From: Polaribacter sp. | GTDB taxonomy: Bacteria > Bacteroidota > Bacteroidia > Flavobacteriales > Flavobacteriaceae | Assembly (NCBI GenBank): GCA_029245785.1 | Contig: JAQWOR010000074.1 | Coordinates: forward strand, 4,758-68,757 | DNA length: 64,000 bases | Direction of reading: 5' to 3' | In this document: in pieces, positions 134 to 61,475 of the stretch | Numbering within the stretch: the stretch's first letter is position 1 | Layout: each line of letters starts with the position of its first letter | Position numbers and translations under genes: made by a program | The notes under the pieces: generated by a model | Told to the model about the DNA's origin: nothing | What the model saw: only the letters and a program-made list of their open reading frames with translations | The model's database searches: none

Positions 134-1450
134 CTAATTTATCGGAAACAACTCAATCTCTTTTCCCAACCAATCCTGCAACTTTGCATGTATTTTTTGC
201 TGATCATCTTTAGAAAAATGTTTAATTCTTGTTCCGTGATGCCCTCCTTTTAAGACCATTTTCAGTGCATCAACTGTTGGTTTTGGAATTGGAGCACACG
301 CGCCCCAAGGATCATACTCTCCGTATATATACAAAATTTGATGCCCTTTGTTTTCTATAAAATCTCTCACTTCTCTTATGTACTCAGTATCGTATGGCAT
401 GGCTATATTTTCAGGGCCAAAACAAGCTAATGAAGATGTTTTTATATGCACTAGTAAATCTTGAACAGGTGCTGTATCATACCCATAATAACCCAATTCT
501 GTCATGTGCTGATAAAAAGAAGGCAGGTAATTGTAAATTCCAGCATCGCTGAATAAATAAAACCCAGCAACCTTTTTTAAATATGCAAATAACACTACTG
601 AACTTGCTGTGGCATTCGGAATCTCCTCACAACGACTTCCCCATTGCCAAAACGAAAACGGAAATTCTAACACGGCATGCTCCAACACCTCTTCTACTGG
701 CATCTTTGTAAACAACACCTTTTTTTCAGCCGCATATTTTTTGAGCTCTTCAAGAACTTCAACACCATTTTTTAACACAGCACGTTGAAATTGCACAATC
801 TTATCTCGGCATTCTTTTGTGCCAACAGTATTGATTAATTGTATTGTTCTAGGGTCTTCTTGAGTATTGATCAACGGCGCAACATAAGGCACGGCCACAT
901 CAATATCTTTTGGGTATTTTGATTTATAAATCAGCACCGTTTCCCCTCCTTTACTAATTCCGGCAGACAGCCATTTGCTTGTATACAATCGTTTTAATTT
1001 GGTGACTATCTTATGGTAATCTTCTACTGCTGCATCGTTTTTTAAATACTGCCATGGTATCGAGTCTGGCCTTGACTTTCCGTAAAAACGATATTCAACC
1101 TGCACTTGATTTGCTCTTAACATCTCACTCAGCTCGTAAGTTTGATATCTTGCATTATAGCCTTCAGTGACTAAAACTGTTGGCTTTTCATACCCGGCAT
1201 GAGAAACATATATGTAGTGATCAAAAGTTCCTGCAGATGCATCTTGATGATTTAACGATTGTTTTAGAATCAATTGATACGCTTCTGTAGAATGGTCTTG
1301 TGCTTTTACCGCATTTATTTCTGCAGACGGAAACAGCACTTTTAATTGTTCTTTAAATGACAAGCCTTCTAAATTGGACTCCACTTTCTTGCAAGAAACT
1401 ACTGCTGCACTTATGAACAGGAAAAAAAACAACTTTTTAAACATTGGCAT
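134..1450 (-). CDS. Peptidase S37/S28-like alpha/beta-hydrolase lipoprotein (PS-10 tripeptidyl aminopeptidase-like)
   Basis: Lipobox VVSC; EHRF-like EYRFYGKS motif; GISKGG nucleophile elbow; C-terminal GGHHG His. Confidence 0.8.
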   Translation of the reverse strand: MPMFKKLFFFLFISAAVVSCKKVESNLEGLSFKEQLKVLFPSAEINAVKAQDHSTEAYQLILKQSLNHQDASAGTFDHYIYVSHAGYEKPTVLVTEGYNARYQTYELSEMLRANQVQVEYRFYGKSRPDSIPWQYLKNDAAVEDYHKIVTKLKRLYTSKWLSAGISKGGETVLIYKSKYPKDIDVAVPYVAPLINTQEDPRTIQLINTVGTKECRDKIVQFQRAVLKNGVEVLEELKKYAAEKKVLFTKMPVEEVLEHAVLEFPFSFWQWGSRCEEIPNATASSVVLFAYLKKVAGFYLFSDAGIYNYLPSFYQHMTELGYYGYDTAPVQDLLVHIKTSSLACFGPENIAMPYDTEYIREVRDFIENKGHQILYIYGEYDPWGACAPIPKPTVDALKMVLKGGHHGTRIKHFSKDDQQKIHAKLQDWLGKEIELFPIN

Positions 1451-1586
1451 ATCTACTTATTTTACTCGCTAAAATTAGACCAACAATGTCACTTATTCTA
1501 ATACTATCTTAACCAAGTGTTTGCGTATTTTATGAGAATACTCGTTTGTATACTACTATAACTAAAGATTTAGCTACTTTTATCCT

Positions 1587-2546
1587 ATGAACAACACCAA
1601 GCTAATAAGCGGCGATTTTATAGAAAAAAATACTGTTTTTACAGAACTAATTACAGCATTAAAACAGGCTTTTTCTAATCGTAATGTATTGGTCCCAATG
1701 CGCCATCATCACGATTTTCCAAATCCAGAAATGCATGCAGACTCTACATTACTGCTGATGCCCGCCTGGAACCCAAGTAAAAATGCAGGCGTAAAAGTTG
1801 TCACCGTAAGCCCAGAAAATGGACAATTTGACTTGCCTTCTATTCAAGGAACCTATATTTATCTTGACGCTGTAAAAGGAACTATAAAAGCACTCTTAGA
1901 AGCTAAAAGACTGACTGTTAAAAGAACCGCAGCTGCCTCTGCGCTAGCATCCTCCTATTTATCTCGAAAAAATTCTTCTTCGTTATTAATGATTGGAACC
2001 GGAGCTTTATCAAAAAATTTAATCAAAGCACATGCTGCTGTTCGCCCAATTAAAAACGTATTTATTTGGGGACGAAATTTCGAAAAAGCAACAGCAATTG
2101 CTACTGAATTACAGCAGGAAAATTTCACAATTCAACCTATAAAAACCATTGAAGAAAAAATTTCTAACGTCGATATTATTTCGGCTGCGACCTTGTCTAA
2201 AATACCTTTGATTCTAGGAAAGCACTTAAAAAACGGACAACATATTGATTTGGTTGGCGCCTATAAAAAAGACATGCGCGAAGCTGATGACGAAACCATT
2301 TTAAAAGCAGTTGTTTATATAGATACCTTTCAGGGTGGCCTCAAAGAAAGTGGCGACATTGTGATTCCGCTTCAAAATGGAACGCTTAAAGAAGAAAACA
2401 TTAAAGCTGATTTATTTGAATTGGCATCCGAAGAAAAACAAGGAAGAAACAACAGCAATGAGATCACGGTTTTTAAATCTGTAGGGCATGCACTTGAAGA
2501 TTTAGCCGCTGCAACGTATTATTATAACAAATTTACAACTAACTGA
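1587..2546 (+). CDS. lhpI: Ornithine cyclodeaminase/mu-crystallin family; probable Delta1-pyrroline-2-carboxylate reductase
   Basis: RTAAASALA and IGTGA Rossmann motifs, FKSVGHALEDLAAA C-terminus; adjacent to a t3LHyp dehydratase. Confidence 0.75.
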   Translation: MNNTKLISGDFIEKNTVFTELITALKQAFSNRNVLVPMRHHHDFPNPEMHADSTLLLMPAWNPSKNAGVKVVTVSPENGQFDLPSIQGTYIYLDAVKGTIKALLEAKRLTVKRTAAASALASSYLSRKNSSSLLMIGTGALSKNLIKAHAAVRPIKNVFIWGRNFEKATAIATELQQENFTIQPIKTIEEKISNVDIISAATLSKIPLILGKHLKNGQHIDLVGAYKKDMREADDETILKAVVYIDTFQGGLKESGDIVIPLQNGTLKEENIKADLFELASEEKQGRNNSNEITVFKSVGHALEDLAAATYYYNKFTTN

Positions 2547-2634
2547 TGTCAGTTCGAGTAATCCCGAGTACTCGGGATTGTATCGAGAACAACATCTCGA
2601 TACATTTCGACAAGTCGAAACACTCGATGTGACA
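2547..2634. repeat. Nested palindromic REP/REPIN-like element
   Basis: Outer TGTCAGTTCGAGT...ACTCGATGTGACA arms enclose a perfect 20-bp palindrome AATCCCGAGTACTCGGGATT (2560-2579), a TGTATCGAGA/TCTCGATACA pair and TTTCGAC-AA-GTCGAAA. Confidence 0.8.
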
Positions 2635-2649
2635 AGAACTAATTTACCC

Positions 2650-3717
2650 ATGAGTAACACGTATCAAAATATCCTTTCAAAAACCAATTTCAACCCTCCA
2701 AAAGACTGGATGCAAATTAAAACCATTGACATGCATACGGGTGGAGAGCCGCTTCGTGTTATTGTGAGTGGATTTCCAAAATTGAGAGGAAATTCGGTAT
2801 TGGACTACAGACGTTATTGCAAAGAAAATTTCGATTACTTGCGTACTGCTTTGCTATTTGAACCTCGTGGCCATGCTGATATGTATGGCTGTATTTTGGT
2901 GCCTCCAAATGATGATGATGGAGATTTCGGCATTCTTTTTCTACACAACGAAGGCTATTCAACCATGTGTGGTCATGCCATTATTGCGATTTCTACACTG
3001 GCGGTTGAAATGAATTGGACCTCTGTACAAGAAGGCGAAAATATTCTGAAAATTGATGCGCCTTGTGGTAGAATTACCTCTTTTGTAAATGTGAAAAACG
3101 GAAAAGTGACAAACGTCCGCTTTCATTGTGTTCCCAGTTTTGTGGTGGGACTAAACAGAATTGTGGATGTAGCCGGCTTAGGAAAAGTAACCTATGACTT
3201 GGCTTATGGTGGTGCTTTTTATGCCTATGTAGACATGGCAAAAAATAATTTTAATTTTGATTTAAGCACCGATTCTTACAGAAACCTCATCAGTAAAGGA
3301 ATGGATATTAAACATGCTGTAATGAATGCTGACAACGAAATTTTACATCCTTTTGAAAACGATTTGAGTTTTTTATATGGAACCATTTTTATTGACAATA
3401 ACAAACAACCTTTTGGCGCAGACAGTAAAAATGTATGCATTTTTGCTGAAGGTGAAGTTGATCGTTGCCCAACAGGTTCTGGCGTTTCTGGTAGAATGGC
3501 CATACATAAAGCAAGAAATGAAATAGCCTATGGAGAAACCATGTCTATAGAAAGCATTACCGGTTCTGTATTTAAAGGTTCAGTAATTTCAGAAGAAGAC
3601 TATGGTACTTTTAAAGCGGTCATTCCTCAAGTAGAAGGCAGCGCCTACATTACAGGAATGCACACTTTTGTTATGGATCCAAATGACCCAATGAAAGAGG
3701 GGTTTATTTTAAGATAG
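2650..3717 (+). CDS. lhpH: Proline racemase family, trans-3-hydroxy-L-proline dehydratase type
   Basis: DMHTGGEPLR, STMCGH and DRCPTGSG motifs give a Cys/Thr catalytic pair; start moved from 2578 to ATG 2650 because the upstream codons lie in the palindromic element. Confidence 0.85.
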   Translation: MSNTYQNILSKTNFNPPKDWMQIKTIDMHTGGEPLRVIVSGFPKLRGNSVLDYRRYCKENFDYLRTALLFEPRGHADMYGCILVPPNDDDGDFGILFLHNEGYSTMCGHAIIAISTLAVEMNWTSVQEGENILKIDAPCGRITSFVNVKNGKVTNVRFHCVPSFVVGLNRIVDVAGLGKVTYDLAYGGAFYAYVDMAKNNFNFDLSTDSYRNLISKGMDIKHAVMNADNEILHPFENDLSFLYGTIFIDNNKQPFGADSKNVCIFAEGEVDRCPTGSGVSGRMAIHKARNEIAYGETMSIESITGSVFKGSVISEEDYGTFKAVIPQVEGSAYITGMHTFVMDPNDPMKEGFILR

Positions 3718-3814
3718 CCTATTAATGACCACCACTCAACTCTTGTGAAGCTTTTAAAAAAACACAACCAGTACCCACTAGTTTATCTTCAATTAAATAG
3801 CGTATATTTACACT

Positions 3815-4813
3815 ATGAGTATCATTAGAGTCAAAGAAAATTCAGACATCCCTAAATACAAACAGATTATTAAATCGGTAGAAGATGCCATTGTGAACAA
3901 TCAGGTAAAAAGAGGCGATAAACTACCATCTATTAATAGCATTAAGAACAGGTTCTCTTTATCTAGAGATACTGTTCTATTAGCTTATGGCGATTTAAAA
4001 GTTCGGGGCATCATTCAATCAATTCCTGGAAAAGGTTATTACCTTAAAAGAGAAAATATTGAAGTTTCACAAAAAATATTTTTGCTTTTTGATGAATTAA
4101 ATGCGTTTAAAGAAAATTTATACAAATCATTTTTAAAAAACTTAAGCCCTACTATCGAAGTAGACATTTATTTTCATCATTTTAATTACGAAGTCTTCAG
4201 CAAACATATCTATGATAATATTGGCAATTACAACCATTATATCATCATGCCAGCAAATTTAATAGATACCGATATAATTATCGGAAAATTACCTAAAAAC
4301 AACGTATACATTCTAGACCAAACACATGAGGAGCTTTCAAAGTACTCAACTATCTATCAAAACTTTAGAAAAGACATTAGCGTTGCATTAACACAATGCC
4401 TACCACAACTAAAAAAATACCATACAATTATCTTCATTTTTAATAAAAATAAACAACCACAAGAAATGTTGCATGGGTTTTATGATTTTTGTTCTAAACA
4501 CAATATAGACCATGAAATTATCATCAACAGTGACAACAGAACGTTACAAAAAGGAGAAGTGTATCTTATTCCTGAAGACAGGGACTTGATTCAAGTCATC
4601 AAAAAAATGAAAGAACAACAGTTAAGCATTGCTTCAGATATTGGTATCATTTCTTACAACGATACCTTATTAAAAGAAATTGTTGAGGGCGGTATTACAA
4701 CCATTTCAACAGATTTTAATGAAATGGGAGAAAAACTAGCAGCACTCATCTTTCATAAAGAGCTCACTAAAATAGAAAATACCAATCGACTTATTGTTAG
4801 AAACTCGTTATAA
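3815..4813 (+). CDS. GntR-family regulator with a LacI/periplasmic-binding-like C-terminal domain
   Basis: N-terminal PKYKQI...GDKLPS...PGKGYY winged HTH; C-terminal IGIISYNDT...ITTISTDF. Confidence 0.85.
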   Translation: MSIIRVKENSDIPKYKQIIKSVEDAIVNNQVKRGDKLPSINSIKNRFSLSRDTVLLAYGDLKVRGIIQSIPGKGYYLKRENIEVSQKIFLLFDELNAFKENLYKSFLKNLSPTIEVDIYFHHFNYEVFSKHIYDNIGNYNHYIIMPANLIDTDIIIGKLPKNNVYILDQTHEELSKYSTIYQNFRKDISVALTQCLPQLKKYHTIIFIFNKNKQPQEMLHGFYDFCSKHNIDHEIIINSDNRTLQKGEVYLIPEDRDLIQVIKKMKEQQLSIASDIGIISYNDTLLKEIVEGGITTISTDFNEMGEKLAALIFHKELTKIENTNRLIVRNSL

Positions 4814-4826
4814 AAAAAATGTCATT

Positions 4827-5727
4827 TTGTTCAAAATCAACTCCATAAAAAAAGCAGATACAGACTATCTAAAAATAGAAAGCATAGATCAGAAATCACA
4901 TGCCCTTATTTATTTAAGCAATGGTGGAAGTCTACAAGAATTAGTCCTACATAAAAAGAAAATAATCCACCAATTAACTACTGCTGACTACACAACATCG
5001 TATGCCTCTGCAATTTTGTTTCCTTTTGCCAATAGAATAGACAAAGCGTCCTATTCATTTCAAGAAAAAAAATACACGCTAAAAGTTAATTTAAAAGAAG
5101 AAAACAATGCCATTCATGGCTTGGTATACAACAAAAAATTTACCCTTAAAGACAAAGAAATTACCCAACAACAAGCGTCGGTAACACTTGTCTATTCTGA
5201 ACAAAACAAAGCTCAAGGATTCCCTTTTATATATACCATAGAACTTATATATACCCTTACAGAAGATGCACTTTCTCTAACAATTTGTATTACAAACAAT
5301 GATGTTGTTTCCTTTCCTTTTAATGTAGGATGGCATCCCTATTTTTATAGTTCTAATTTATACAACAGTAGTTTGTATATTGATAGTAGTAGCAAATTTT
5401 CATTTTCAACTAATGAAATGATTCCTATTAAAACAAAAGACGCAAGCATCCATAAAGAATTACAAATTAAAGATCGTTTTTTTGATGATTGCTATCTTTT
5501 AAATACAGATAAAATGGTATTTAAAACTCCTGATTATCATATACAAATCAATTCATCCTTAGAGAAAAATTATGTACAAATTTTTACACCTTCTGACAGG
5601 AAATCAATCGCAATAGAACCCATTACAGCACCACCAAATAGCTTTAATCATAAGTTAGGACTCGGCATTTTAAATCCGGATGAAAACTATACGGCTTCAT
5701 GGAAAGTCTCCTTAAAATCAACATCTC

Positions 5728-5738
<11 letters not shown>
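4827..5738 (+). CDS. Aldose 1-epimerase (galactose mutarotase) family
   Basis: LFPFANRI, NAIHG, GWHPYF and IAIEP motifs; start uncertain (TTG 4827 preferred over 4794, which overlaps the GntR gene). Confidence 0.8.
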
Positions 5739-17185
<11,447 letters not shown>

Positions 17186-17195
17186 CCCATATCTT

Positions 17196-17627
17196 ATGAA
17201 AAAAGCACTTTTAATATTCTCCGCATGCATGTTATTTCTTTCTTGTGCTACATCAACAGAGCAAGAAGATAAAAAAGCAATCTTAGAAATCATGGACCTA
17301 CAACAAAAAGCATGGTCAAAACACAATTTAGAAGGCTTTATGAAAGGATATTGGAAATCTGATTCTTTAAAGTTTTATGGAAGCAATGGCGTTACTTTAG
17401 GATGGAACAAAACCTTGGCAAATTATAAAAAAGGGTATCCAACTCCTGATCACTCTGGAAACTTACAATTTAAAATCAATGACATTTCTAAAATCAATGA
17501 TGGTGCTTATTTTGTAATGGGCGAATATCATTTAACACGAAACGTTGGAGATGCTAATGGCATCTTTATGATCATCTTTAAAAAGATCAATGGCGAATGG
17601 AAAATTATTGCCGATACCTCTTGTTAA
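17196..17627 (+). CDS. NTF2-like/DUF4440 (YybH-like) small lipoprotein
   Basis: ATG 17196 gives MKKALLIFSACMLFLSC (lipobox); AWSKHNLEGFMKGYW, WKIIADTS typical of SnoaL/NTF2 folds. Confidence 0.75.
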   Translation: MKKALLIFSACMLFLSCATSTEQEDKKAILEIMDLQQKAWSKHNLEGFMKGYWKSDSLKFYGSNGVTLGWNKTLANYKKGYPTPDHSGNLQFKINDISKINDGAYFVMGEYHLTRNVGDANGIFMIIFKKINGEWKIIADTSC

Positions 17628-18919
17628 TTGGTATTCATAATCGCTTCAATTTCTTCAATTTCAATAGGCATTGCCGCTGTTAAATTGATATTTCCATCGT
17701 TGGTAAGTAGGTAATCGTTTTCTAATCTACAACCAATGCCTTCTTCAGGAATGTAAATTCCGGGTTCGCAAGTCAATACCATTCCCGCTTCAAAAGGGCG
17801 CGAATACAAACCAACATCATGCACGTCTAAGCCAATATGATGCGCTGTTCCATGCATAAAGTATTTTTTGTATCGTGGTTTTTCAGGATCTTGATTGGCA
17901 ACCTCTGTTGCATCTAACAGTCCTAATTTAATCAATTGAGTCTCTACTAAATTTGCCATTTTCGCTTCATAATCTGAAGAGGTAATTCCTGGTTTTAACA
18001 AGCTACTTCCTTCTTTTAAACAGTGTAAAACGGAAGTATATACTTCTTTTTGCCGTGCCGAAAATTTTCCGCTCACAGGAAAACAACGTGTGGTATCGCT
18101 ATTGTAATTGGCATAACACACGCCAAAATCCATCAAAATCATTTCGCCGTCATTACACATAGCGTCATTGGTATTATAATGCAATGCACAAGCATTTTTA
18201 CCAGAAGCAACAATTGGTTGAAACGCATGATGCGACGCTCCTGCTTTTGTTAAGTTATAGGTCAATTCAGCCTCTAATTCATATTCCTTTACCTGTGGTT
18301 TACAGACTTTTAAAACACGTTTAAATGATGCAACACTAATAGCTGCAGCTTGTTGTATCAATGCAATTTCTTCTTCAGATTTTACAGGTCGTAACGCGCG
18401 TGTAATTTTTGCTGCACGGTAGTATTCGTGCAAAGGATATTTTTTCTTACACCAAGCAATCATTCTATCTTGTTGTGTTTCTTGATCTTTGGTGGCTCTT
18501 TTTAAATGTTCATTATGCCCAAGGTAAAATCCGTCAGCCTCAAAAGCCATGTACTGCAACGTCATTTCAAAATCTTGAACCCATTCTACATGCTTAATTC
18601 CTGAAACTTCAGTAGCCTGTTCTTTTGTTAGTTTTTCACCATCCCAAATTTTGATATGCTCGTTGGTTTCTTTTATAAATAAAATTTCACGCTGCTCTTT
18701 TTTATAGGCATCAGGGTATATGAGCAATATCGTTTCTTCTTGGTCTATTCCAGAGAGATAAAATAAGTCATTGTTTTGAGCAAATCCCATCACATCATCT
18801 GCATTGTTATGTTTTACATCGTTAGAGGTTAAAATAGCAATTGTATTTGCTTTCATTTTAGCTGTAAAACGGTCTCTGTTCTTTATGAATAATGTATTCT
18901 GAATCGGTTCGTATCTCAT
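17624..18919 (-). CDS. pepP: Xaa-Pro aminopeptidase (aminopeptidase P, M24B)
   Basis: DLFYLSGI, DFG...NSD, HGTAHHIGLDVHD, EPGIY, RLEND metal-ligand motifs. Confidence 0.88.
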   Translation of the reverse strand: MRYEPIQNTLFIKNRDRFTAKMKANTIAILTSNDVKHNNADDVMGFAQNNDLFYLSGIDQEETILLIYPDAYKKEQREILFIKETNEHIKIWDGEKLTKEQATEVSGIKHVEWVQDFEMTLQYMAFEADGFYLGHNEHLKRATKDQETQQDRMIAWCKKKYPLHEYYRAAKITRALRPVKSEEEIALIQQAAAISVASFKRVLKVCKPQVKEYELEAELTYNLTKAGASHHAFQPIVASGKNACALHYNTNDAMCNDGEMILMDFGVCYANYNSDTTRCFPVSGKFSARQKEVYTSVLHCLKEGSSLLKPGITSSDYEAKMANLVETQLIKLGLLDATEVANQDPEKPRYKKYFMHGTAHHIGLDVHDVGLYSRPFEAGMVLTCEPGIYIPEEGIGCRLENDYLLTNDGNINLTAAMPIEIEEIEAIMNTN

Positions 18920-18920
18920 A

Positions 18921-20168
18921 TTAAAATCTTCTATCTGGGTGAAATGGGTCTAAATCTAATGTTGTCTTTTTATTTGAAATGACTTCAGCAACCAACTTGC
19001 CTGTTGCAGGACCTAAGCTCCAACCCATCATGGCATGACCTGTTGCAATGGTTAGGTTGTTACATTTTGAAGATTTTCCGATATAAGGCAATCCATCTGG
19101 TGAACATGGGCGCAAACCACATTGTGCTGCGGCTTTTTCTTCTGAAGTAATTGCTAAGTCTTTATAAAAATTACTGGCGGCATTCGCAATCGCCTGTACA
19201 CGAACTGGGTTGATTGTATGATTGATTCCTGCAACTTCCATAGTTCCTGCAAAACGTGTAAAACCATCCATTGGTGTGACCGCTACTTTGGCTTCACATA
19301 AAATTGCCGGAATGGTAATATGGGTTTCTCGTGCTACATTAATTCGATATCCTTTTCCTGCTTGAACAGGAATTTTAATTCCTAGTTTTTTTGTCATCAA
19401 CGGGCTCCAACTTCCTGCTGCTAATACAACCTCATCTGCAGGGAGCTCTTGTTTATCTGTAATTACTTTTGAAATCACAGCATTAGAAACCTCTATGTCT
19501 TTGACCTCTTCATTCGCAAAGAACACCACCCCTTTCGATTTTAAATAGGCAAGCATTTCTGACATAAAATCGGTTGGTGTCATATGAGCATCACAATTAA
19601 AATAGACCGCTCCATTTATGTTTAAATTAGCATTTGGCTCTAATTTTTTAACTTCTGCTGCTGATAAATTTTGCGCTTCTAAACCTTCTTCAATCGCTCT
19701 TTTACCAACCTTCCACTCTTCTTCTCCTACTTTATCTGTTTGATAACACATCAACAATCCCTTTCGTTGATAATGAAAATTAAAATTGTTAGATGCTTTT
19801 ATCTCTTCATATAGATCTCTACTTAGTAAATTAATATCCTTAATCACAGGAATTGCCTTTTCAACTTTTAAAGGATTTGCTGACTTTTTAAAAGCCCAAA
19901 CCCATTTCAAAAAATCGATATCTAGTCGTGGTTTTACATAAAATGGACTTGCCGAATTAAACATCCACTTAATTCCTTTAGTGATCATTCCAGGAGCTGC
20001 CAAAGAAATAATATGGCTTGGCGTTATATAGCCAGCATTTACATATGATGCGCCGCTAGAAAAATCAGATTTGTCAATTACGGTCACTTGATGGCCTTCT
20101 TTTTGAAGGTAATATGCCGTACTCAATCCTATGATTCCGCCTCCTATAATTACTACATTCTTACTCAT
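18921..20168 (-). CDS. lhpB: FAD-dependent D-amino acid dehydrogenase family; probable D-hydroxyproline dehydrogenase
   Basis: IIGGGIIG FAD motif, ASYVNAG, GLRPCSPDGLP, GHAMMGWSLGP; directly downstream of the Hyp epimerase. Confidence 0.75.
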   Translation of the reverse strand: MSKNVVIIGGGIIGLSTAYYLQKEGHQVTVIDKSDFSSGASYVNAGYITPSHIISLAAPGMITKGIKWMFNSASPFYVKPRLDIDFLKWVWAFKKSANPLKVEKAIPVIKDINLLSRDLYEEIKASNNFNFHYQRKGLLMCYQTDKVGEEEWKVGKRAIEEGLEAQNLSAAEVKKLEPNANLNINGAVYFNCDAHMTPTDFMSEMLAYLKSKGVVFFANEEVKDIEVSNAVISKVITDKQELPADEVVLAAGSWSPLMTKKLGIKIPVQAGKGYRINVARETHITIPAILCEAKVAVTPMDGFTRFAGTMEVAGINHTINPVRVQAIANAASNFYKDLAITSEEKAAAQCGLRPCSPDGLPYIGKSSKCNNLTIATGHAMMGWSLGPATGKLVAEVISNKKTTLDLDPFHPDRRF

Positions 20169-20181
20169 TAAAAACTTGAAT

Positions 20182-21192
20182 TTAAATCACCTGAAAACCA
20201 AATGCATACGGATCGTCTTCTGTATCAATACTGATTGTATTATGGCCAAATATTTTTGCCCAACCTTGAATGCTTGGAATAATTGCTAACTTTCCATTTA
20301 GGCTTGTTTCTTCTTCAACACGGCCTATAAATTTACTACCTATAAAACTTTCGTGAATAAATTTTTCGCCTTTTTTTAATTTCCCTTTCGCATATAATTG
20401 TGCAATCCTAGCTGATGTTCCTGTTCCGCAAGGACTTCTGTCAATGGCTTTATCGCCATAAAACACGGCGTTTCTACCTGAAGATGTTGGATCAATCGGA
20501 TTTCCTGTCCATAGTAAATGTGTCACATCACGAATGGTATCATTTTCTGGATGGATAAATACATCAGGGTATTTCTCATTGATACGTTCTCTGATAACTT
20601 GTGAATATTGAATGATTTTACCTGCTGTAAAATCGTGAATTCCAGAGAAATTTTGCTGTGGATCTACAATCGCATAATAATTTCCACCATAAGCAACATC
20701 AAAAGTAAGTGTTCCTAATTCTGGACAATCTACAGTCAATCCTTCAGCCGCTAAAAAACTTTTTACATTGGTCAATTTCACCCAATCTACTTTGTTGCCT
20801 GTTTGTTGATACTCAATTTCAACCAAACCCGCAGGCGCTTCCATTTTAATTTTACCGGGAATTTTCGGTATTATCAATCCTTCTTCTATTGCAATGGTAA
20901 TGGTACCGATAGTTCCATGTCCACACATTGGTAAACAGCCAGAAGTTTCGATAAATAGAATTGCAAAGTCGTTTTTTGGATTGTGAGGCGGAAATAATAT
21001 ACTTCCACTCATCATATCGTGTCCACGAGGCTCAAACATGAGTCCTTTCCGAATCCAATCATATTCTTTTAAAAAGTGTTGACGCTTTTCGCTCATGGTT
21101 GCCCCTTTTAAATTAGGGCCTCCTTCAACTACTACCCGAACTGGGTTTCCGCAGGTATGTGCATCAATACAAGAAAATATATTACGACTCAT
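20182..21192 (-). CDS. lhpA: 4-hydroxyproline 2-epimerase
   Basis: DAHTCGNP, PMCGHG and DRSPCGTG give a Cys/Cys catalytic pair. Confidence 0.9.
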   Translation of the reverse strand: MSRNIFSCIDAHTCGNPVRVVVEGGPNLKGATMSEKRQHFLKEYDWIRKGLMFEPRGHDMMSGSILFPPHNPKNDFAILFIETSGCLPMCGHGTIGTITIAIEEGLIIPKIPGKIKMEAPAGLVEIEYQQTGNKVDWVKLTNVKSFLAAEGLTVDCPELGTLTFDVAYGGNYYAIVDPQQNFSGIHDFTAGKIIQYSQVIRERINEKYPDVFIHPENDTIRDVTHLLWTGNPIDPTSSGRNAVFYGDKAIDRSPCGTGTSARIAQLYAKGKLKKGEKFIHESFIGSKFIGRVEEETSLNGKLAIIPSIQGWAKIFGHNTISIDTEDDPYAFGFQVI

Positions 21193-22906
21193 TTTTTTGT
21201 TTTTCTATATAGCTATCAATTCTTTTTTCTAAGATCGATAAAGTAACGGTTCCTTCTGACAATAGCACTTCATGAAAATCTCGAACATCAAACTTGTTGC
21301 CCAATATTTTTTCAGCTTTTGCACGTAACTGTTTTATTTTAATCTCTCCTATTTTATACGAAATTGCTTGACCAGGCCAAGAAATATATCGATCTGTTTC
21401 TGTGGTAATTTCATGAATAGACAAGGCGGTATTTTCTGACATATATGCAATTACTTGTTGCCGTGTCCATCCCTTAGCATGCACACCTGGATCTACCACC
21501 AATCTACATGCACGCCACATTTCATAGGTAAGTTTTCCAAATTTTTCATAGAGTGTGGTATAAATTCCCATTTCGTCTGCCAAGGTTTCTGAATACAAAC
21601 CCCAACCCTCTCCATAAGCAGAAAGGTATAAATTTCGTCTAAAACTCGGAATGGTTTTAGGCAATTCACTATTCAACGACATTTGCAAATGATGTCCTGG
21701 AACAGCTTCATGTGCTGTTAACGCTGGAATTGTATACAACGTTCTACTTGGCAAATCATAGGTGTTTATCCAATAATGCCCTGCACTTGTTTCGTTTCTT
21801 GGCGGAGAATACCTTCCGCTTGTATATTTAGGTGCTATAGCAGCAGGAACTGGTACAACTCCGTACGGTTTTCGAGGCAAGGTCTTGAAAAATTTTGGCA
21901 ATTGATCATCAATTCTTTTCGAAACATCTCTTGCAAACATTAATAACTCTTTGGGGGTTTTTGCGAAAAACTGGGCATCGGTTCTTAAGAATTTTAAAAA
22001 ATCTGCAAAACTCCCTTTAAACCCCAACTCCTTAATAATCTGTTGCATTTCTGCTTTAATTCTAGCCACTTCTTCTAATCCAATAGCATATACATCATCT
22101 GCCGTATACTGATTGCTAGTTGTATAAAAATTGATTCTGTTTTGATAAAACGCCTTTCCATTAGGCACCGTAAACACCCCTAAGCCTTTTCGAGTATTCG
22201 GAAAATATTCTGTTTCAAAAAAGGCTTTAATCTTTTTGTACTGATCTACCGCATTTTTTTGAACACTCCTTTTCGCCACTTTAATAATTGAGTCTTTTAA
22301 CGCTTTTGAAAATGATTCAGGCAACTGATGAAAAGGTGTGTAGAATTCACTCTTTGTCACCTCTGTAACAAGGTGTTTGTCATAGGTAAATTCATACTTG
22401 GTAAAAACTGCTTTGGGCTGTGAGATCCCTTCTTCAATTCCTGCTCTTAACAGATTTAAATTATAAGCAACCTTTTGGGGTAATGCTTCCAACTGTTTCA
22501 AATACTCTCCTACCTGTTTTTTGTTTTCAAAGGTTCTATTTCCCATTCGACTTAAATTTAAATGGAAAGCGGATTCGTTTGTAATCGGGTTCAAATACAT
22601 TTTAAATGTATGTTGATCTATTTTATCTTGTAAAATAAACAACAGTAGTTCACGTGAAATTTGGTCTGTTTCTGATAAATTATTAGCTGTTATTTTTTTT
22701 ATTTCAGAAATTAGGTTTTTAGAAAAAGTCGCTTCAGCTTCAAAATATTTAGTGGTACTTTCTAGAGACTCTCCTCTTTTAAAATCATACGCTCTGGGCT
22801 CTTCATAAGTCGCTATTAAAGAGTACAACTGATTACTTGAAGAAGTGTTTTTACAAGCTGTAAGGCTTAGCAATAAGAAAAGGCCAAAGAGTCTAATTAT
22901 TTTCAT
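21182..22906 (-). CDS. DUF885 family lipoprotein (possible zinc metallopeptidase)
   Basis: Lipobox LTAC; HEAVPGHHLQ, EGWGLYSE, RACRLVVD, PGQAISYKIG motifs. Confidence 0.8.
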   Translation of the reverse strand: MKIIRLFGLFLLLSLTACKNTSSSNQLYSLIATYEEPRAYDFKRGESLESTTKYFEAEATFSKNLISEIKKITANNLSETDQISRELLLFILQDKIDQHTFKMYLNPITNESAFHLNLSRMGNRTFENKKQVGEYLKQLEALPQKVAYNLNLLRAGIEEGISQPKAVFTKYEFTYDKHLVTEVTKSEFYTPFHQLPESFSKALKDSIIKVAKRSVQKNAVDQYKKIKAFFETEYFPNTRKGLGVFTVPNGKAFYQNRINFYTTSNQYTADDVYAIGLEEVARIKAEMQQIIKELGFKGSFADFLKFLRTDAQFFAKTPKELLMFARDVSKRIDDQLPKFFKTLPRKPYGVVPVPAAIAPKYTSGRYSPPRNETSAGHYWINTYDLPSRTLYTIPALTAHEAVPGHHLQMSLNSELPKTIPSFRRNLYLSAYGEGWGLYSETLADEMGIYTTLYEKFGKLTYEMWRACRLVVDPGVHAKGWTRQQVIAYMSENTALSIHEITTETDRYISWPGQAISYKIGEIKIKQLRAKAEKILGNKFDVRDFHEVLLSEGTVTLSILEKRIDSYIEKQKNES

Positions 22907-22909
22907 GTG

Positions 22910-24493
22910 TTATACTTTATTTGTTGTTTTTACACCATTTATAGTTCTTAAAATTTTTAATGGATTTTCGTTTTTCAATGCTTCTGGCAGCAAGTTATTG
23001 GGCCAAGATTGAAAACTAAAAGGCCGTACCCAACGTTTTATAGAACCAACACCAACGGCTGTAAATCTTGCATCTGTAGATGCTGGATAAGGCCCTCCGT
23101 GTTGCATAGATGGGCACACCTCTACGCCTGTTGGAACTCCATTAAAAATAATTCTTCCCACCTTATCCTGTAAGGCTGAAACAACCTCTTTATAATTAAA
23201 AAGGTCTTCTCCTTCTCCAATAATAGTTCCTGTTAATTGCCCTTCTAGCTGTTTAACAACCTGTTCTAATTGTTGTTTGTCTTCACATTGAACTAGTAAA
23301 GAAAATGGGCCAAAAACTTCCTGATGTAAGGTTGGGTTTTCTAAAAACATTTTACCCTCAACTTTTGAAACTATTTGGCGGCCATAATTGCCTTTTATTT
23401 CTTGAGAGGATTCTGCTAAAACTTCTATTCCGCTTTGAGAAACCACGTGGGCTTTATTGCTTTCATAAGCCCCAACAATAGCTGGATGCAACATACAACT
23501 AGGTTCTACTTTTACAATTTCTTCTGCCAATACTTGAGAAAACTGATGTAATTGATTACTTTTAATTGCTATTAATAACCCTGGGTTTGTACAAAACTGC
23601 CCAGCTCCCAAGGTAATGGAACCTGCATAGGTTTTTGCCCAATCAGCAGCTTTTTCTTGTAATGCTTCAGGTAAAATAACTACTGGATTGACAGATCCCA
23701 TTTCTGCAAAAACCGGAATGGGCTCTGGTCTATTAGCTGCCAAATTAAACAATGCTCTACCTCCTCTAATACTTCCTGTAAATCCAACTCCTTTTACTAC
23801 CGGGTGTTGTACCAATTCTTGCCCAACTTCGATCCCGCTACTATTTAAATTAGAAAACACGCCATTTGGCATGCCTGTTTTTTCTGCGGCTTTAATAATC
23901 GCAGAAGCTACTAACTCTCCAGTTCCTGCATGCATTGGATGCGATTTTACAAGTACTGGGCAACCTGCTGCTAAAGCAGCAGCTGTATCTCCTCCGGCTG
24001 TAGAAAACGCCAAGGGAAAATTAGAAGCTCCAAAAACCACTATGGGCCCTAATGGTACTAGCATTTTTCGTAAATCTACCTTTGGTGTTGGCTGACGATC
24101 TGGTTGTGCTGTATCAATACTTGCTGCTATCCAAGAGCCTTCTTCTAAATGCGCTGCAAACGCTCTTAATTGTCCAACTGTTCTTCCTCGTTCTCCCATG
24201 GCTCTTCCTGTCGGCAAACCAGATTCTGATGTATAGACTTCTATTAATTCTGCTCCCAATGCTTCTATTTCTTCAGCAATTGCTCGTAAAAATACAGCCT
24301 TGTCTTTGCCTGACTTTTTACTATACGTTTGAAAGGCTTTAGAAGCCAATAGAGCCGCATCATTAATTTCATCTGAAGTTGCTTCTGTAAAAACAATGGT
24401 GTTTTCAGTATTCTTTTGCGGATTGAAAGTTGTATATGTTTTACTTCCAAGCGCTGAAAGTGTGTTTCCTATGTAATTTTTTCCTGTAATCAT
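22910..24493 (-). CDS. lhpG: NADP-dependent aldehyde dehydrogenase, alpha-ketoglutarate semialdehyde dehydrogenase type
   Basis: FGASNFPLAFS, FTGS, EMGSVNP, GQFCTNPG, EVFGP, HGGPYPA. Confidence 0.85.
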   Translation of the reverse strand: MITGKNYIGNTLSALGSKTYTTFNPQKNTENTIVFTEATSDEINDAALLASKAFQTYSKKSGKDKAVFLRAIAEEIEALGAELIEVYTSESGLPTGRAMGERGRTVGQLRAFAAHLEEGSWIAASIDTAQPDRQPTPKVDLRKMLVPLGPIVVFGASNFPLAFSTAGGDTAAALAAGCPVLVKSHPMHAGTGELVASAIIKAAEKTGMPNGVFSNLNSSGIEVGQELVQHPVVKGVGFTGSIRGGRALFNLAANRPEPIPVFAEMGSVNPVVILPEALQEKAADWAKTYAGSITLGAGQFCTNPGLLIAIKSNQLHQFSQVLAEEIVKVEPSCMLHPAIVGAYESNKAHVVSQSGIEVLAESSQEIKGNYGRQIVSKVEGKMFLENPTLHQEVFGPFSLLVQCEDKQQLEQVVKQLEGQLTGTIIGEGEDLFNYKEVVSALQDKVGRIIFNGVPTGVEVCPSMQHGGPYPASTDARFTAVGVGSIKRWVRPFSFQSWPNNLLPEALKNENPLKILRTINGVKTTNKV

Positions 24494-24756
24494 TTTTTCT
24501 GTATTCTTTTTAAATGGGCTTCTACATCTACTGGTTTATAAATTGTTTTTGTTGATACTGGATATTTTTCTAACAATGTCTTTGGTCGTATTGGGCGTTT
24601 TGTAAAGTTGCCTCCACAATTGGGGCAAACATGCTGTAACACCGTTGCAACACACTGGGCACAAAAGGTGCATTCAAATGTACAGATCATTGCTTCTTGA
24701 GCATCAAATGGCAATGTTTTATTACAATGTTCGCATGTTGGTCTTATCTCTAGCAT
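24490..24756 (-). CDS. DUF1272 family Cys-rich small protein
   Basis: MLEIRPTCEHC...ICTFECTFC...CPNCGG...RP pattern. Confidence 0.8.
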   Translation of the reverse strand: MLEIRPTCEHCNKTLPFDAQEAMICTFECTFCAQCVATVLQHVCPNCGGNFTKRPIRPKTLLEKYPVSTKTIYKPVDVEAHLKRIQKK

Positions 24757-24863
24757 GGTTTTTTATTTTGTGTTAAGGATTGCAGCGATATCCTTTTGTT
24801 TTTTTAACAAAAGATTTAGCTAAAAGCCTGACCGCGCCAAAGCGTGGTAACACCCAAATTATT

Positions 24864-25778
24864 TTACAACTGTTTATATGCTGGTAACGTTGGCCTGGTT
24901 TTCAATCCGTTTTCTATAATTGCCAATACATTTTCTCTTTCTTCACCAACTAATGGCAAGCGCGGCTCCCGCACATTTTCAGTTCCAATTCCAGTGGCTA
25001 CTTCTGCCAACTTAATATTTTGCACTAATTTAGTGTTTATATCTAACTCTAACAATGGTAAAAACCAACGATAAATTTTGATAGCTTCTTGTACTTTATC
25101 TGCTTTTGCTAGTTTGTAAATTGCAACCGTTTCTGCAGGAAACGCACAAACCAGTCCTGCAACCCAACCGTCTGCTCCCATTAGTAAACTTTCTAAAGCG
25201 AGTGTATCTACACCGCTTAAAATTGCAAAACGGTCTCCAAAACGAGTTTTCATTCTCGAAATATTAGAAATATCTCTAGTAGATTCTTTTACCGCTTGTA
25301 TGTTTTTACATGTGGCCAATTCTTCAAACATGTCTAAGGTAACTTCAATACCATAATCTACTGGATTATTGTAAATCATTATTGGTAATGATGTACTATT
25401 GGCTACTTTTTTAAAATACACAACTGTTTCTCTATCATCTGCTTTGTAACGCATTGGAGGTAGCATCATTAAGCCAGATGCGCCATCTTCTTCTGCCTTT
25501 CTAGCTGCATCTATAGCTGCTGTTGTAGTTTGTTCAGCTATATTTATAATTACCGGAACTGCTCCATCAACTATTTCTACTGTTTTTCTAATTAAAATTC
25601 TTTTTTCATCATCAGTTAATGTACTAGCTTCTCCTAGTGTTCCTCCTAAAATAATTCCGCTAACACCAGCTGCTAACTGTGCCTTGATGTTTACTTCAAA
25701 ATTCACTAAATCTAAGGTGTCTTCACTTGTAAATTTGGTGGTTACTGCTGGCATAACGCCTTTCCATTGTATACTCAT
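24864..25778 (-). CDS. lhpC: DHDPS/NAL family; probable Delta1-pyrroline-4-hydroxy-2-carboxylate deaminase
   Basis: GGTLGE, YNNP and Schiff-base KES motifs; first gene of the Hyp operon. Confidence 0.8.
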   Translation of the reverse strand: MSIQWKGVMPAVTTKFTSEDTLDLVNFEVNIKAQLAAGVSGIILGGTLGEASTLTDDEKRILIRKTVEIVDGAVPVIINIAEQTTTAAIDAARKAEEDGASGLMMLPPMRYKADDRETVVYFKKVANSTSLPIMIYNNPVDYGIEVTLDMFEELATCKNIQAVKESTRDISNISRMKTRFGDRFAILSGVDTLALESLLMGADGWVAGLVCAFPAETVAIYKLAKADKVQEAIKIYRWFLPLLELDINTKLVQNIKLAEVATGIGTENVREPRLPLVGEERENVLAIIENGLKTRPTLPAYKQL

Positions 25779-25798
25779 ACTTATTGTGTTATTTTTTA

Positions 25799-25806
25799 CA
25801 AATTTA
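25799..25806 (-). promoter_or_regulatory. Bacteroidota -7 promoter element (TAAATTTG) for the Hyp operon
   Basis: Exact TAnnTTTG match about 20 nt upstream of the 25778 start. Confidence 0.6.
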
Positions 25807-25905
25807 CAGCCGAAATAAGAATTCTAGATTATCGCATATTAACTAATGCTGATATTTTATTACCCTTCTAGTATATTATTATCAATTTTTAGGTGAATTT
25901 TAGCA

Positions 25906-25913
25906 TATATTTG
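25906..25913 (+). promoter_or_regulatory. Bacteroidota -7 promoter element (TATATTTG) for the AraC gene
   Basis: Exact TAnnTTTG match 12 nt upstream of ATG 25926. Confidence 0.6.
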
Positions 25914-25925
25914 TAAAAAAAACTT

Positions 25926-26765
25926 ATGAAAATACTTCCTTTTAAAATTTCGAAATCGGAAAATGTATCGCTTATTTACCAAGAAGATATAGGAGAAATA
26001 TTCTACGATAAATTACACCAACATGAAGAGATACAACTTTGCGCTATTGTAGAGGGCGAAGGGAATTTGGTTGTTGGCGATACCATTAACGAATATACTT
26101 CTGGAGATGTTTTAGTGATTGGAAGTAACCTGCCTCACGTATTTAAAAGTGACACAAGCACTTATAAATCAACTTTTATGATGACTCTTTTTTTTACCAA
26201 AGACTCTTTTGGAGAGCGGTTTTTTAAGCTTGGAGATTTTAGTGTAGTTGAAAAATTATTTAAAATTAGCAGCACAGGAGGAAAAGTAACATCAAACCAA
26301 ACTGCTTTAATGGCCTTGTTTTTATCTTTAAAAAAGGCGTCATATTTAGATCGGTTTATCATCTTCTTAAGAATTGTAAGTCTTATTTTAACATCTGAAT
26401 CTGTACCGCTGTCTAATTTTGTCTATCAAAAAGCATATTCTGACAATGAAGGAAAAAGAATGAGTAATGTGATGGATTTTACAATGAATCATTTTTTTAC
26501 AGAAATTAATTTAAAAACCATCTCCGGAGTTTCAAATATGACTCCCAATGCGTTTTGTAGGTATTTTAAACAACGTACAAATAAAACCTATTTTCAGTTT
26601 TTAATAGAGGTTAGAATTGAGAATGCTTGTCGTTTATTAAAGAATAAAGATTTGTTAGTTTCTGAAATTTCTGAAAAATCTGGCTTTAAAAACATCTCCA
26701 ATTTTAATCGAAAATTTAAAAGCGTAAAAGGTATTACGCCTTCTGCATATAGGTTATCAAGCTAA
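25926..26765 (+). CDS. AraC-family regulator (cupin + HTH), divergent from the Hyp operon
   Basis: LHQHEEIQL cupin; FCRYFK...RIENAC...SGFKNISNFNRKFK double HTH. Confidence 0.9.
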   Translation: MKILPFKISKSENVSLIYQEDIGEIFYDKLHQHEEIQLCAIVEGEGNLVVGDTINEYTSGDVLVIGSNLPHVFKSDTSTYKSTFMMTLFFTKDSFGERFFKLGDFSVVEKLFKISSTGGKVTSNQTALMALFLSLKKASYLDRFIIFLRIVSLILTSESVPLSNFVYQKAYSDNEGKRMSNVMDFTMNHFFTEINLKTISGVSNMTPNAFCRYFKQRTNKTYFQFLIEVRIENACRLLKNKDLLVSEISEKSGFKNISNFNRKFKSVKGITPSAYRLSS

Positions 26766-42884: not shown

Positions 42885-42901
42885 ATATTTTTAAATTTTT
42901 C

Positions 42902-43019
42902 ATCCTGAACTTTTACGCTAAACTTGTTTCAGTGTACTTCAGGATCTGTTATTTTATTTTGTTTTATTCATGAGATTCCGAAACAATGCTAAAAATAAAT
43001 TCAGCACAAGGTTCGGAAC
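42902..43019. repeat. Inverted doublet of nested REP-like palindromes between etfB and etfA
   Basis: ATCCTGAAC[TACGCTAAACTTGTTTCAGTGTA]CTTCAGGATCT and GAGATTCCGAA[TGCTAAAAATAAATTCAGCA]TTCGGAA. Confidence 0.75.
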
Positions 43020-43033
43020 GATTTAACCTTCCA

Positions 43034-60004: not shown

Positions 60005-60089
60005 CAGAGAGGAAGGGATTCGAACCCTCGATACGTTGCCGTATACACGCTTTCCAAGCGTGCGCCTTCGACCACTCGGCCACCTCTCT
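60005..60089 (-). tRNA. tRNA-Ser(GGA), 85 nt, long variable arm, CCA not encoded
   Basis: AGAGAGG/CCTCTCT acceptor stem, CACGC-TTGGAAA-GCGTG anticodon arm, GGTTCGAATCC T-arm, G discriminator. Confidence 0.97.
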
Positions 60090-61357: not shown

Positions 61358-61475
61358 AATTGTTAAATTTTTAAGGTTCTCGACCTTGATTATTAATTAA
61401 GGGTGCAAATGTAGTAACTTTTCTCAATATAAAAGACTAATACAACATTAATTATAGCTAAAAATAGGGTTTCAA

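Follow-up and report, generated by a model that had tools for sequence, protein, structure and literature searches.

A modular gene cluster in Polaribacter and related Flavobacteriaceae with predicted roles in the catabolism of collagen's modified residues

Why should genes for glycosidases, for a kinase–lyase fusion protein and for two pathways of hydroxyproline (Hyp) catabolism stand side by side on a Polaribacter chromosome, and could they together serve the residues that are left after collagen or gelatin has been digested? Collagen is the most abundant animal protein, and its glycosylated hydroxylysine (Hyl) is excreted by animals without full degradation; galactosyl-hydroxylysine (Gal-Hyl) is excreted uncleaved, and we know of no cleavage of the Gal-beta-O-hydroxylysine bond by animals. 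The question is raised by 64,000 nt of Polaribacter sp. (GCA_029245785.1, contig JAQWOR010000074.1, positions 4,758-68,757, forward strand), the whole of which is called the window here, and in which an island at 134-26765 had been proposed, in an earlier sequence-only reading, to be a single collagen/gelatin utilization locus. Comparative genomics leads us to regard the island as probably a modular catabolic cluster for such residues, and its functional link to collagen-type modified residues as likely. The locus is a modular assembly around an autonomous core, in which a glycoside hydrolase (GH) of family 63, the fusion and a GH2 enzyme form a predicted operon for glucosyl-galactosyl-hydroxylysine (Glc-Gal-Hyl). 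Because this grouping recurs in dozens of related species, an undescribed bacterial route for the modified residues of collagen is likely.

The predicted glycosylhydroxylysine core

Domains were called by Pfam and NCBIfam scans of the open reading frames (ORFs) of the window, with NCBIfam bit scores compared with the curated cut-offs, and localization was read from the N-termini as lipoboxes or signal peptides. The center of the core is a gene (11005-14052, +) for a cytoplasmic fusion protein of 1015 aa, composed of an APH-fold kinase (approximately aa 1-400), an M23 peptidase domain (approximately 445-542) and a class-III pyridoxal phosphate (PLP) domain (approximately 585-1010), recognized by Pfam as APH, Peptidase_M23 and Aminotran_3, respectively. 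The whole protein scored 1122 bits against NCBIfam NF004799 (PRK06148), whose cut-off is 1128. The PLP domain gave 444 bits to the human ethanolamine-phosphate phospho-lyase 6TOR, its best match in the PDB, and 293 bits to the Arthrobacter phospholyase 5G4I, with all other class-III enzymes of the PDB (transaminases, racemases, decarboxylases) at or below 168 bits; on these scores it can clearly be placed in the phospholyase clade, apart from the transaminases.

The kinase domain matched only the PRK06148/06149 fusion families, plus homoserine kinase II weakly, and no solved relative of it was found in the PDB by sequence. Its end-to-end BLASTP alignment with human HYKK (E=3e-26) is a lead only, the human sequence being unverified. 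Structure prediction was uninformative about kinase specificity, since the model had a pLDDT (predicted local distance difference test) of 65 and the fold search returned generic APH-fold kinases of small-molecule hydroxyls, aminopropanol kinase included. The M23 domain in the middle retains its zinc and catalytic motifs, HLGID (446-450), YGH (498-500) and PHLHF (535-539), and among 81 homologues HxGxD is kept in all 81, YGH in 78 and PHLHF in 76; as a guess, its role could be to free hydroxylysine from short Gly-containing peptides. We propose that the fusion acts as hydroxylysine kinase and 5-phosphohydroxylysine phospholyase, a substrate to which genomic context alone points. The kinase–lyase fusion itself is not new, since in published work a bacterial fusion of this kind is cited as the lead by which hydroxylysine kinase and the phospholyases were recognized in humans. 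No assayed bacterial hydroxylysine kinase or phospholyase was found in the literature searched.

Two glycosidases complete the core. Upstream lies the gene for a YgjK-like alpha-glucosidase lipoprotein (5728-7704, +; Pfam MGH1-like_GH, GH63 and YgjK_N; lipobox ...LLFSNC), which aligned to E. coli YgjK with 254 bits and keeps the family's Asp of WESGxD (here WESGMD) and Glu of ENY (here RENYHP), the residues to which published work on YgjK assigns the roles of general acid and general base. This enzyme, of a family (GH63) of inverting alpha-glucosidases in clan GH-G, is proposed to remove the alpha-1,2-glucose from Glc-Gal-Hyl. Downstream of the fusion, GH2b (14063-17185, +; lipobox ...LLFSRC), the core member of the two putative LacZ-type beta-galactosidases, is a lipoprotein with a LacZ-type domain set (three N-terminal domains, LacZ_4 and Bgal_small_N) and 990 bits against NF052611 (cut-off 999), and is proposed to release galactose from Gal-beta-hydroxylysine. 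The secreted GH2a (7718-11008, +), which carries a signal peptide and all five LacZ domains and scored 971 bits against the same model, shares about 39% identity with GH2b and should be regarded as an accessory member, orthologues of it being present in only 10 of 80 related loci. In front of GH63 stand the genes for a GntR regulator with a LacI-type sugar-binding domain (3815-4813, +; Pfam GntR and Peripla_BP_3) and for a cytoplasmic aldose 1-epimerase, or mutarotase (4794-5738, +; Pfam Aldose_epim, 151 bits; no signal peptide). From GntR through the DUF4440 lipoprotein gene that follows GH2b (17196-17627, +), the junctions measure -20, -11, +13, +14, +10 and +10 nt.

Hydroxyproline modules, peptidases and the proposed route

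The left end of the island holds a putative pathway for trans-3-hydroxy-L-proline. A protein of the OCD/mu-crystallin family (1587-2546, +) passed the curated cut-off for Delta1-pyrroline-2-carboxylate (Pyr2C)/Delta1-piperideine-2-carboxylate (Pip2C) reductases (NF004793, 380 bits against 322), and in the loci of 17 related species its gene is the neighbor of that for the dehydratase. The latter (2578-3717, +; Pfam Pro_racemase, 333 bits) encodes the first of two proline-racemase paralogues, with the Cys/Thr catalytic pair of trans-3-hydroxy-L-proline (T3LHyp) dehydratases (MCGH...DRCPTGS; Thr in 20 of 20 orthologues); its best NCBIfam match was the T3LHyp dehydratase model, at 370 bits and below the cut-off of 540.

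The right arm, on the minus strand, holds genes for the 4-Hyp pathway. Paralogue 2 (20182-21192, -) passed the equivalog cut-off of the 4-Hyp 2-epimerase (NF010578, 584 bits against 376) and has the Cys/Cys pair (MCGH...DRSPCGT) in 15 of 15 orthologues. Next to it, and likewise in related loci, lies the gene for an FAD-dependent protein of the D-amino-acid dehydrogenase type (DAO; 18921-20168, -; Pfam DAO, 229 bits), for which D-amino acid dehydrogenase was the best NCBIfam match, and which we propose, from family membership and operon context, to be a cis-4-hydroxy-D-proline dehydrogenase. On the same grounds the DHDPS-like protein (24864-25778, -; Pfam DHDPS, 201 bits), which stayed below the dapA cut-off (170 against 206) and whose gene comes first in the 4-Hyp arm, both here and in loci L042, L069, L072, L073 and L144, is the proposed deaminase of the pathway. 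The NAD(P)+ aldehyde dehydrogenase (ALDH; 22910-24493, -; Pfam Aldedh), with 3V4C and 1EYY as its nearest PDB entries and low-scoring best NCBIfam matches to 2,5-dioxovalerate and alpha-ketoglutarate semialdehyde dehydrogenases, is assigned by its operon position to the latter activity, as a proposal. A near-identical stretch of DNA from another assembly, L161, with an identical DUF885 protein, shows a single difference over the 1584-nt ALDH gene, a G-to-T change at 9785 that turns Glu458 into a stop and splits the protein into 457 and 65 aa; the change reflects either variation within the population or a mistake in sequencing.

Compared with the known bacterial pathways for 4-Hyp and trans-3-Hyp, the two modules use the same families and catalytic signatures, and the gene order of each arm gives a complete pathway. 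The chemistry is not new; what differs is the linkage to a hydroxylysine/glycoside module, and the presence of a DUF885 lipoprotein gene and a DUF1272 gene within the 4-Hyp operon. The sequence-only reading had named a plausible enzyme for each collagen modification, and as far as the catalytic pairs, cut-offs, phospholyase clade and YgjK homology reach, these calls stand.

Three further proteins could trim peptides. A serine peptidase lipoprotein of family S37 (134-1450, -; Pfam S37, 193 bits, and S28, 44 bits; lipobox ...AAVVSC), which recurs in related loci as itself or as a paralogue, is a candidate exopeptidase for proline-rich peptides. PepP (17624-18919, -; Pfam AMP_N and Peptidase_M24) is a cytoplasmic aminopeptidase of the M24B type, for which Xaa-Pro aminopeptidase was the best NCBIfam match (265 bits, below the cut-off), and is present in 15 related loci. 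The DUF885 lipoprotein (21182-22906, -; Pfam DUF885, 505 bits; lipobox ...SLTAC) keeps a HEAVPGHH motif in 10 of 10 orthologues, with no HEXXH motif, and its PDB relatives are all uncharacterized; a fold search yielded no more than a weak match, to oligoendopeptidase F (E=0.047), with a model of low confidence around the motif, and the protein is possibly a zinc peptidase. In all, six proteins bear export signals, namely lipoboxes on S37, GH63, GH2b, DUF885 and DUF4440 and a signal peptide on GH2a, and none was seen in the N-termini of the fusion, PepP, the mutarotase or the Hyp enzymes. This distribution fits a scheme in which deglycosylation and trimming would take place outside the cytoplasm and amino-acid catabolism inside.

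Under such a scheme, GH63 would first take the alpha-1,2-glucose off Glc-Gal-Hyl outside the cytoplasm, GH2b, helped by GH2a, would take off the beta-galactose, and S37 and possibly DUF885 would trim the peptides. The products could be taken up, in relatives, by SusC/D, by a sodium:solute symporter or by LysO-family proteins. In the cytoplasm, PepP would cut Xaa-Pro and Xaa-Hyp peptides, and the M23 domain may act before its partner domains on short Gly-containing peptides; the kinase domain of the fusion would then phosphorylate the 5-hydroxyl of hydroxylysine, and the PLP domain would eliminate phosphate and ammonia to yield 2-aminoadipate semialdehyde, which could enter lysine catabolism encoded elsewhere in the genome. 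The mutarotase may ready the sugars set free in this way for entry into glycolysis and the Leloir pathway. With trans-3-Hyp, the Cys/Thr dehydratase followed by the Pyr2C reductase would give proline; trans-4-Hyp would be acted on in turn by the epimerase, the DAO-type dehydrogenase, the DHDPS-like deaminase and ALDH, with 2-oxoglutarate as the end product. GntR would control the sugar/hydroxylysine operon and an AraC-family regulator the 4-Hyp operon; the two arms probably respond to different collagen-derived molecules.

Elsewhere in the window, 15-30 kb from the island, lie a saccharopine-dehydrogenase-family gene and genes for the alpha and beta subunits of an electron transfer flavoprotein (ETF) (56772-58133, +; 41922-43780, -). 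The former could possibly be a downstream partner in aminoadipate-semialdehyde/lysine metabolism and the latter an electron acceptor for the DAO-type dehydrogenase; the window gave no evidence of linkage between these genes and the island.

The two arms converge, the plus arm running from 1587 to 17627 and the minus arm from 25778 to 17624, and their ends overlap by 4 nt (17624-17627). Junctions from PepP through the DUF1272 gene are as tight as +1, +13, -11, +3 and -4 nt. On the left, a hairpin-rich spacer of 163 nt separates the OCD gene from the likely ATG of the dehydratase (2710), and 97 nt lie 5' of GntR; because these spacers set the OCD, dehydratase and GntR genes apart, the left arm should comprise at least two transcription units. 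The picture of two convergent operons drawn by the sequence-only reading is thus borne out in its overlap and tight packing, and has to be given up where it treated the left arm as a single operon. Likely true starts of the dehydratase, fusion and DUF4440 genes are the internal ATGs at 2710, 11023 and 17196, and with a start at 17196 DUF4440 does not overlap GH2b.

GntR occupies the same position in 9 related loci, with a TPR/LuxR-type regulator substituting in others, and the AraC-family gene (25926-26765, +; Pfam HTH_18, AraC and Cupin), which in the window diverges from the 4-Hyp arm, has this same divergent place in L023, L069, L073 and L144. TAnnTTTG boxes, the -7 element of the Bacteroidota type, were found only in the 147-nt spacer between the AraC and DHDPS-like genes, at 25806 (-) and 25906 (+). 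Since the arms have separate regulators, GntR with its sugar-binding domain and AraC, a modular response rather than a single regulon is to be expected.

Linkage of the modules and competing explanations

Does this grouping extend beyond one genome? The locus set comprised 80 species-level Flavobacteriaceae genomes, across which the fusion is 71-79% identical; their ORFs were called and clustered, and recurrent clusters were named by Pfam. Neighborhoods were counted in the 60 species genomes with full 10-kb flanks around the fusion, shared ancestry not being removed from the counts. GH63 or GH2 genes lay beside the fusion in 45 of the 60, with GH63 and GH2b together in 38. Hyp genes did so in 25, four of them without GH genes; both kinds were present in 21 genomes and neither in 11. 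The remaining 24 had GH without Hyp genes, and 18 of these carried SusC/D directly beside the GH63–fusion–GH2 core. Prolyl-type peptidases were present in 29 of 60, always in loci with GH or Hyp genes. Over all 80 loci, GH63 stood directly upstream of the fusion in 34 and GH2b directly downstream in 40. A reverse scan anchored on GH63 orthologues in metagenome contigs (n=40) placed the fusion downstream in 35, and the fusion adjoined none of the GH63 homologues below 40% identity.

The sugar–Hyp linkage in relatives had been named beforehand by the sequence-only reading as a point on which it could fail. Among the 45 genomes having GH63 or GH2 beside the fusion, Hyp genes were found within 10 kb in 21, when approximately 1% would be expected by chance (a random 20-kb window covers less than 1% of such a genome), and the reading was not refuted on this point.

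Four architectures could be distinguished. In the first, SusD, SusC and a TPR regulator precede GH63–fusion–GH2b, which makes a true polysaccharide utilization locus (PUL) of it; in the second, that of the window, modules for 3-Hyp, 4-Hyp and peptidases are attached to the core; in the third, for example in Tenacibaculum finnmarkense, the fusion lies directly beside a Hyp operon with no GH genes; and in the fourth the fusion is alone. Composite islands (L084, L087, L088, L098, L099) bring S37, the 3-Hyp genes, SusC/D, GH63, fusion and GH2b together. Of the cultured carriers, Pontimicrobium sp. IMCC45349 (L013) has a composite island, and Gelidibacter spp. have the form with SusC/D. A second lineage (L134, L165, L166), with only 58% identity in the fusion, keeps GH63–fusion–GH2 with overlapping junctions, beside fucosidase, sulfatase and GH97 genes and with no Hyp genes. 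Recurrent neighbors that fit the model were GalK, GalT, a sodium:solute symporter, an M24 prolidase, an S9 DPP-IV, a PD40-amidohydrolase, a LysO-family pair and a secreted cyclophilin.

We also put forward, tentatively and as a possibility only, a more specific reading of the core, namely a dedicated Flavobacteriaceae pathway for glycosylated hydroxylysine, with GH63 as an analogue of the animal glucosidase PGGHG, a GH2 that cleaves Gal-beta-O-Hyl and a trifunctional M23–kinase–phospholyase. The SusC/D pair that serves this core in many species would then make it a PUL for a glycosylated amino acid.

Some relatives carry additional genes in or near the core. A secreted GH27 alpha-galactosidase lies between GH2a and the fusion in six loci (L007, L045, L048, L090, L114, L115), a hint that the galactosides handled are more varied or come from invertebrates. 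In four loci of the SusC/D type (L071, L100, L103, L123) a split LysO-family pair (lysine exporter, PF03956), absent from the window, follows 3' of the GH63–(fusion)–GH2b core and is a candidate transporter of hydroxylysine or lysine. A GNAT acetyltransferase of 157 aa stands right after the core, downstream of DUF4440 or the fusion, in 18 of 80 loci, with none in the window, and a second GNAT, of 169 aa, lies between GH63 and the fusion in three loci.

Several observations weigh against a collagen locus. Among the ORFs scanned in the 64-kb window, neither SusC/D (no Plug or SusD domains) nor a collagenase nor any candidate uptake system for collagen products was found; the only transporters found there lie far from the island and are of unrelated families, and its ORFs above 800 aa, besides the two GH2s and the fusion, encode only a DUF5686 protein, an H+-PPase and a BNR/sortilin protein. 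In about half of the genomes compared the core lies away from Hyp genes, and in L082, whose left-arm genes are 68-90% identical, Leloir genes occupy the position that the 4-Hyp arm has in the window. Nearly all informative loci are from Flavobacteriaceae, and shared ancestry inflates the counts. In some relatives a GH27 alpha-galactosidase, a GH29 fucosidase or a sulfatase is added, none of which vertebrate collagen needs. In Melioribacteraceae, Flammeovirgaceae, Bacteroidales and another Bacteroidota metagenome-assembled genome (MAG), moreover, the fusion stands by itself and its contexts are unrelated, so that its substrate need not be tied to glycosides; the glycoside link is strong in two lineages and is not universal. 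Kinase–phospholyase pairs are also known for ethanolamine and 1-amino-2-propanol, and the enzyme that best matched the PLP domain in the PDB acts on phosphoethanolamine.

The notion of one collagen/gelatin locus consequently holds in part: it is favored by the linkage in 21 of 45 genomes, and is opposed by the 24 of 45 that keep the core without Hyp genes, by the Leloir swap in L082 and by the two regulators. The related notion of a protein counterpart of a PUL is supported by relatives with SusC/D inside the same island and fails for the window, where no SusC/D was among the scanned ORFs.

Could the same chemistry be directed to another source? Algal and diatom hydroxyproline-rich wall glycoproteins, invertebrate or sponge collagens with other glycans, and microbial or viral collagen-like proteins all come into question. 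The cluster is carried by marine Flavobacteriaceae, many of which were recovered from plankton metagenomes; hydroxyproline and modified hydroxylysine are constituents of diatom walls, and Hyp-O-galactosides occur on algal glycoproteins; and the GH27, GH29 or sulfatase genes of some loci would be superfluous for vertebrate Glc-Gal-Hyl. Nevertheless, the PLP lyase would require a substrate whose primary amine is free, unlike the trimethylated hydroxylysine of diatoms, and several carriers are named, anecdotally, for sponge, fish gut, sea anemone and sea urchin, with some apparent bone-biofilm MAGs among them. L016, L018 and L038 (SusC/D or GntR form) are MAGs labelled BB42, BB35 and BB24, which appear to be bone-surface bins of the study on bone degradation in the sea that described the Colwellia cluster discussed below; the ecological support that they lend is anecdotal. 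We consider a non-collagen or non-vertebrate source unlikely.

It is about as improbable that an ordinary beta-galactoside/alpha-glucoside operon, an amino-alcohol catabolic enzyme and the two Hyp operons are neighbors merely by descent, sharing an inherited chromosomal neighborhood of the family. All 80 loci are indeed from Flavobacteriaceae, and housekeeping-like genes, for DUF4407, PhnA, BlaI, M20 and adenine deaminase, recur with them, which shows that the chromosomal region is conserved; the modules are apart in about half of the genomes, and the two arms carry different regulators. On the other hand, GH63 and GH2b enclose the fusion at gaps of 10-14 nt in the window and with overlapping junctions in the second lineage, which is only 52-58% identical, and the association outlasts insertions (SusC/D, PD40-amidohydrolase, GH2a, GH27) and an inversion of the 3-Hyp pair. 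It is, moreover, reciprocal, as the reverse scan indicates, and does not extend to GH63 homologues of lower identity.

Very improbable, finally, is a fusion acting on another vicinal amino alcohol (ethanolamine/phosphoethanolamine or 1-amino-2-propanol), with glycosidases that free it or an unrelated sugar from some other glycoconjugate: although the best solved PLP relative is phosphoethanolamine lyase, the predicted kinase fold fits aminopropanol kinase and ethanolamine kinase to much the same degree as other kinases with the APH fold and the fusion stands alone in other phyla, no aldehyde dehydrogenase, microcompartment or ethanolamine-utilization genes accompany it, it is repeatedly joined to Hyp and prolyl-peptidase genes, which points to collagen-type peptides, and lysine-type transporters of the LysO family follow the core in four loci.

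Known systems and minor features of the island

The reading of the island as a cluster for collagen's modified residues can be set against several known systems. Animal hydroxylysine catabolism (HYKK/AGPHD1, PHYKPL/AGXT2L2 and PGGHG) has the same predicted chemistry, and the PLP domain falls in the clade of human 6TOR; here, however, kinase and lyase would be parts of one polypeptide with an intact M23 domain between them, the glucosidase is a GH63 enzyme, whereas PGGHG, the animal Glc-Gal-Hyl glucosidase of published activity, belongs to GH65, and beta-galactosidases are added. With SusC/SusD PULs the island shares a regulator of its own and glycosidases that are lipoproteins of the surface or periplasm, but it is predicted to act on a glycosylated amino acid or peptide rather than on a polysaccharide, and the operon includes a cytoplasmic amino-acid-degrading enzyme. 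E. coli YgjK, for which nigerose is the reported preferred substrate, differs in that the flavobacterial GH63 is a lipoprotein in a hydroxylysine context.

The only collagen-utilization cluster found described in the open-access literature searched is that of Colwellia (mSystems 2021, PMC7883544), approximately 21 kb with Hyp/Pro catabolism, prolyl peptidases, regulators, a secreted cyclophilin, an M9 collagenase, an MFS transporter and a TonB receptor, and with no hydroxylysine or glycoside genes; the word hydroxylysine is absent from that paper. A secreted cyclophilin recurs near flavobacterial islands too, but the island of the window has the reverse content. Neither a bacterial Glc-Gal-Hyl locus nor this gene combination was found in open-access papers and preprints, most subscription journals being outside the search, which agrees with the sequence-only reading, to which no description of the full combination was known.

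If the proposed functions are true, the cluster would show how marine bacteria recycle the glycosylated hydroxylysine fraction of collagen. It would also give the YgjK-type GH63 enzymes a physiological role, none being known to us for YgjK itself, and widen the notion of a PUL to include a glycosylated amino acid. It would supply enzymes for the cleavage of Glc-Gal-Hyl and Gal-Hyl, of use in the analysis of collagen glycans and for bone-turnover markers, and GH63, fusion and GH2 together could provide a marker set for collagen degradation in metagenomes, including those of fish pathogens and of bone and carcass communities.

All 18 genes that had been listed for the island were recovered at their coordinates and with their domains by the ORF map, Pfam and NCBIfam, the inventory being incomplete in one place. 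An ORF of 88 aa (24490-24756, -) had been overlooked between the DHDPS-like gene and ALDH; it encodes a Cys-rich protein, named DUF1272 in the contig annotation, overlaps the start of ALDH by 4 nt, and is 71-80% identical to its counterparts at the same place in L005, L053, L069, L073 and L144. The DUF4440 (SnoaL-like) protein at the other side of the convergence, in which Pfam recognized DUF4440 and a lipobox appears when it is read from the internal Met, is present in 22 of 80 loci, 3' of the fusion or GH2b and including loci without any GH gene, and seems to be tied to the fusion itself.

Some noncoding features should also be mentioned. Three consecutive perfect hairpins, AATCCCGAGTACTCGGGATT, TATCGAGAACAACATCTCGATA and TTTCGACAAGTCGAAA, occupy 2547-2640 of the window, between the reductase gene and the likely dehydratase start, and may act as a terminator or attenuator or represent a repeat element. 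The spacer after the DHDPS-like gene contains, on the strand opposite to the operon, a Flavo-1 RNA motif (24761-24837, +; Rfam RF01705, 51 bits), and a second copy was found in L042 (Tenacibaculum finnmarkense) at 13057-13140 (-), just after the fusion gene. A role as an element of Hyp operons was rejected on account of that copy after the fusion and its absence from five other Hyp loci; the motif looks like a dispersed intergenic element.

GC content is flat over the whole window, at about 0.31-0.38. A compositional island was accordingly rejected, there being no sign of recent horizontal acquisition, and because of the flat GC the term island denotes a functional cluster only. No RNA runs containing the window were found, and it matched only marine metagenome DNA runs. 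A tRNA gene (60005-60089, -) and an S16-Flavobacteria ribosomal-protein leader (61363-61397, -), both housekeeping features, confirm the flavobacterial chromosomal context.

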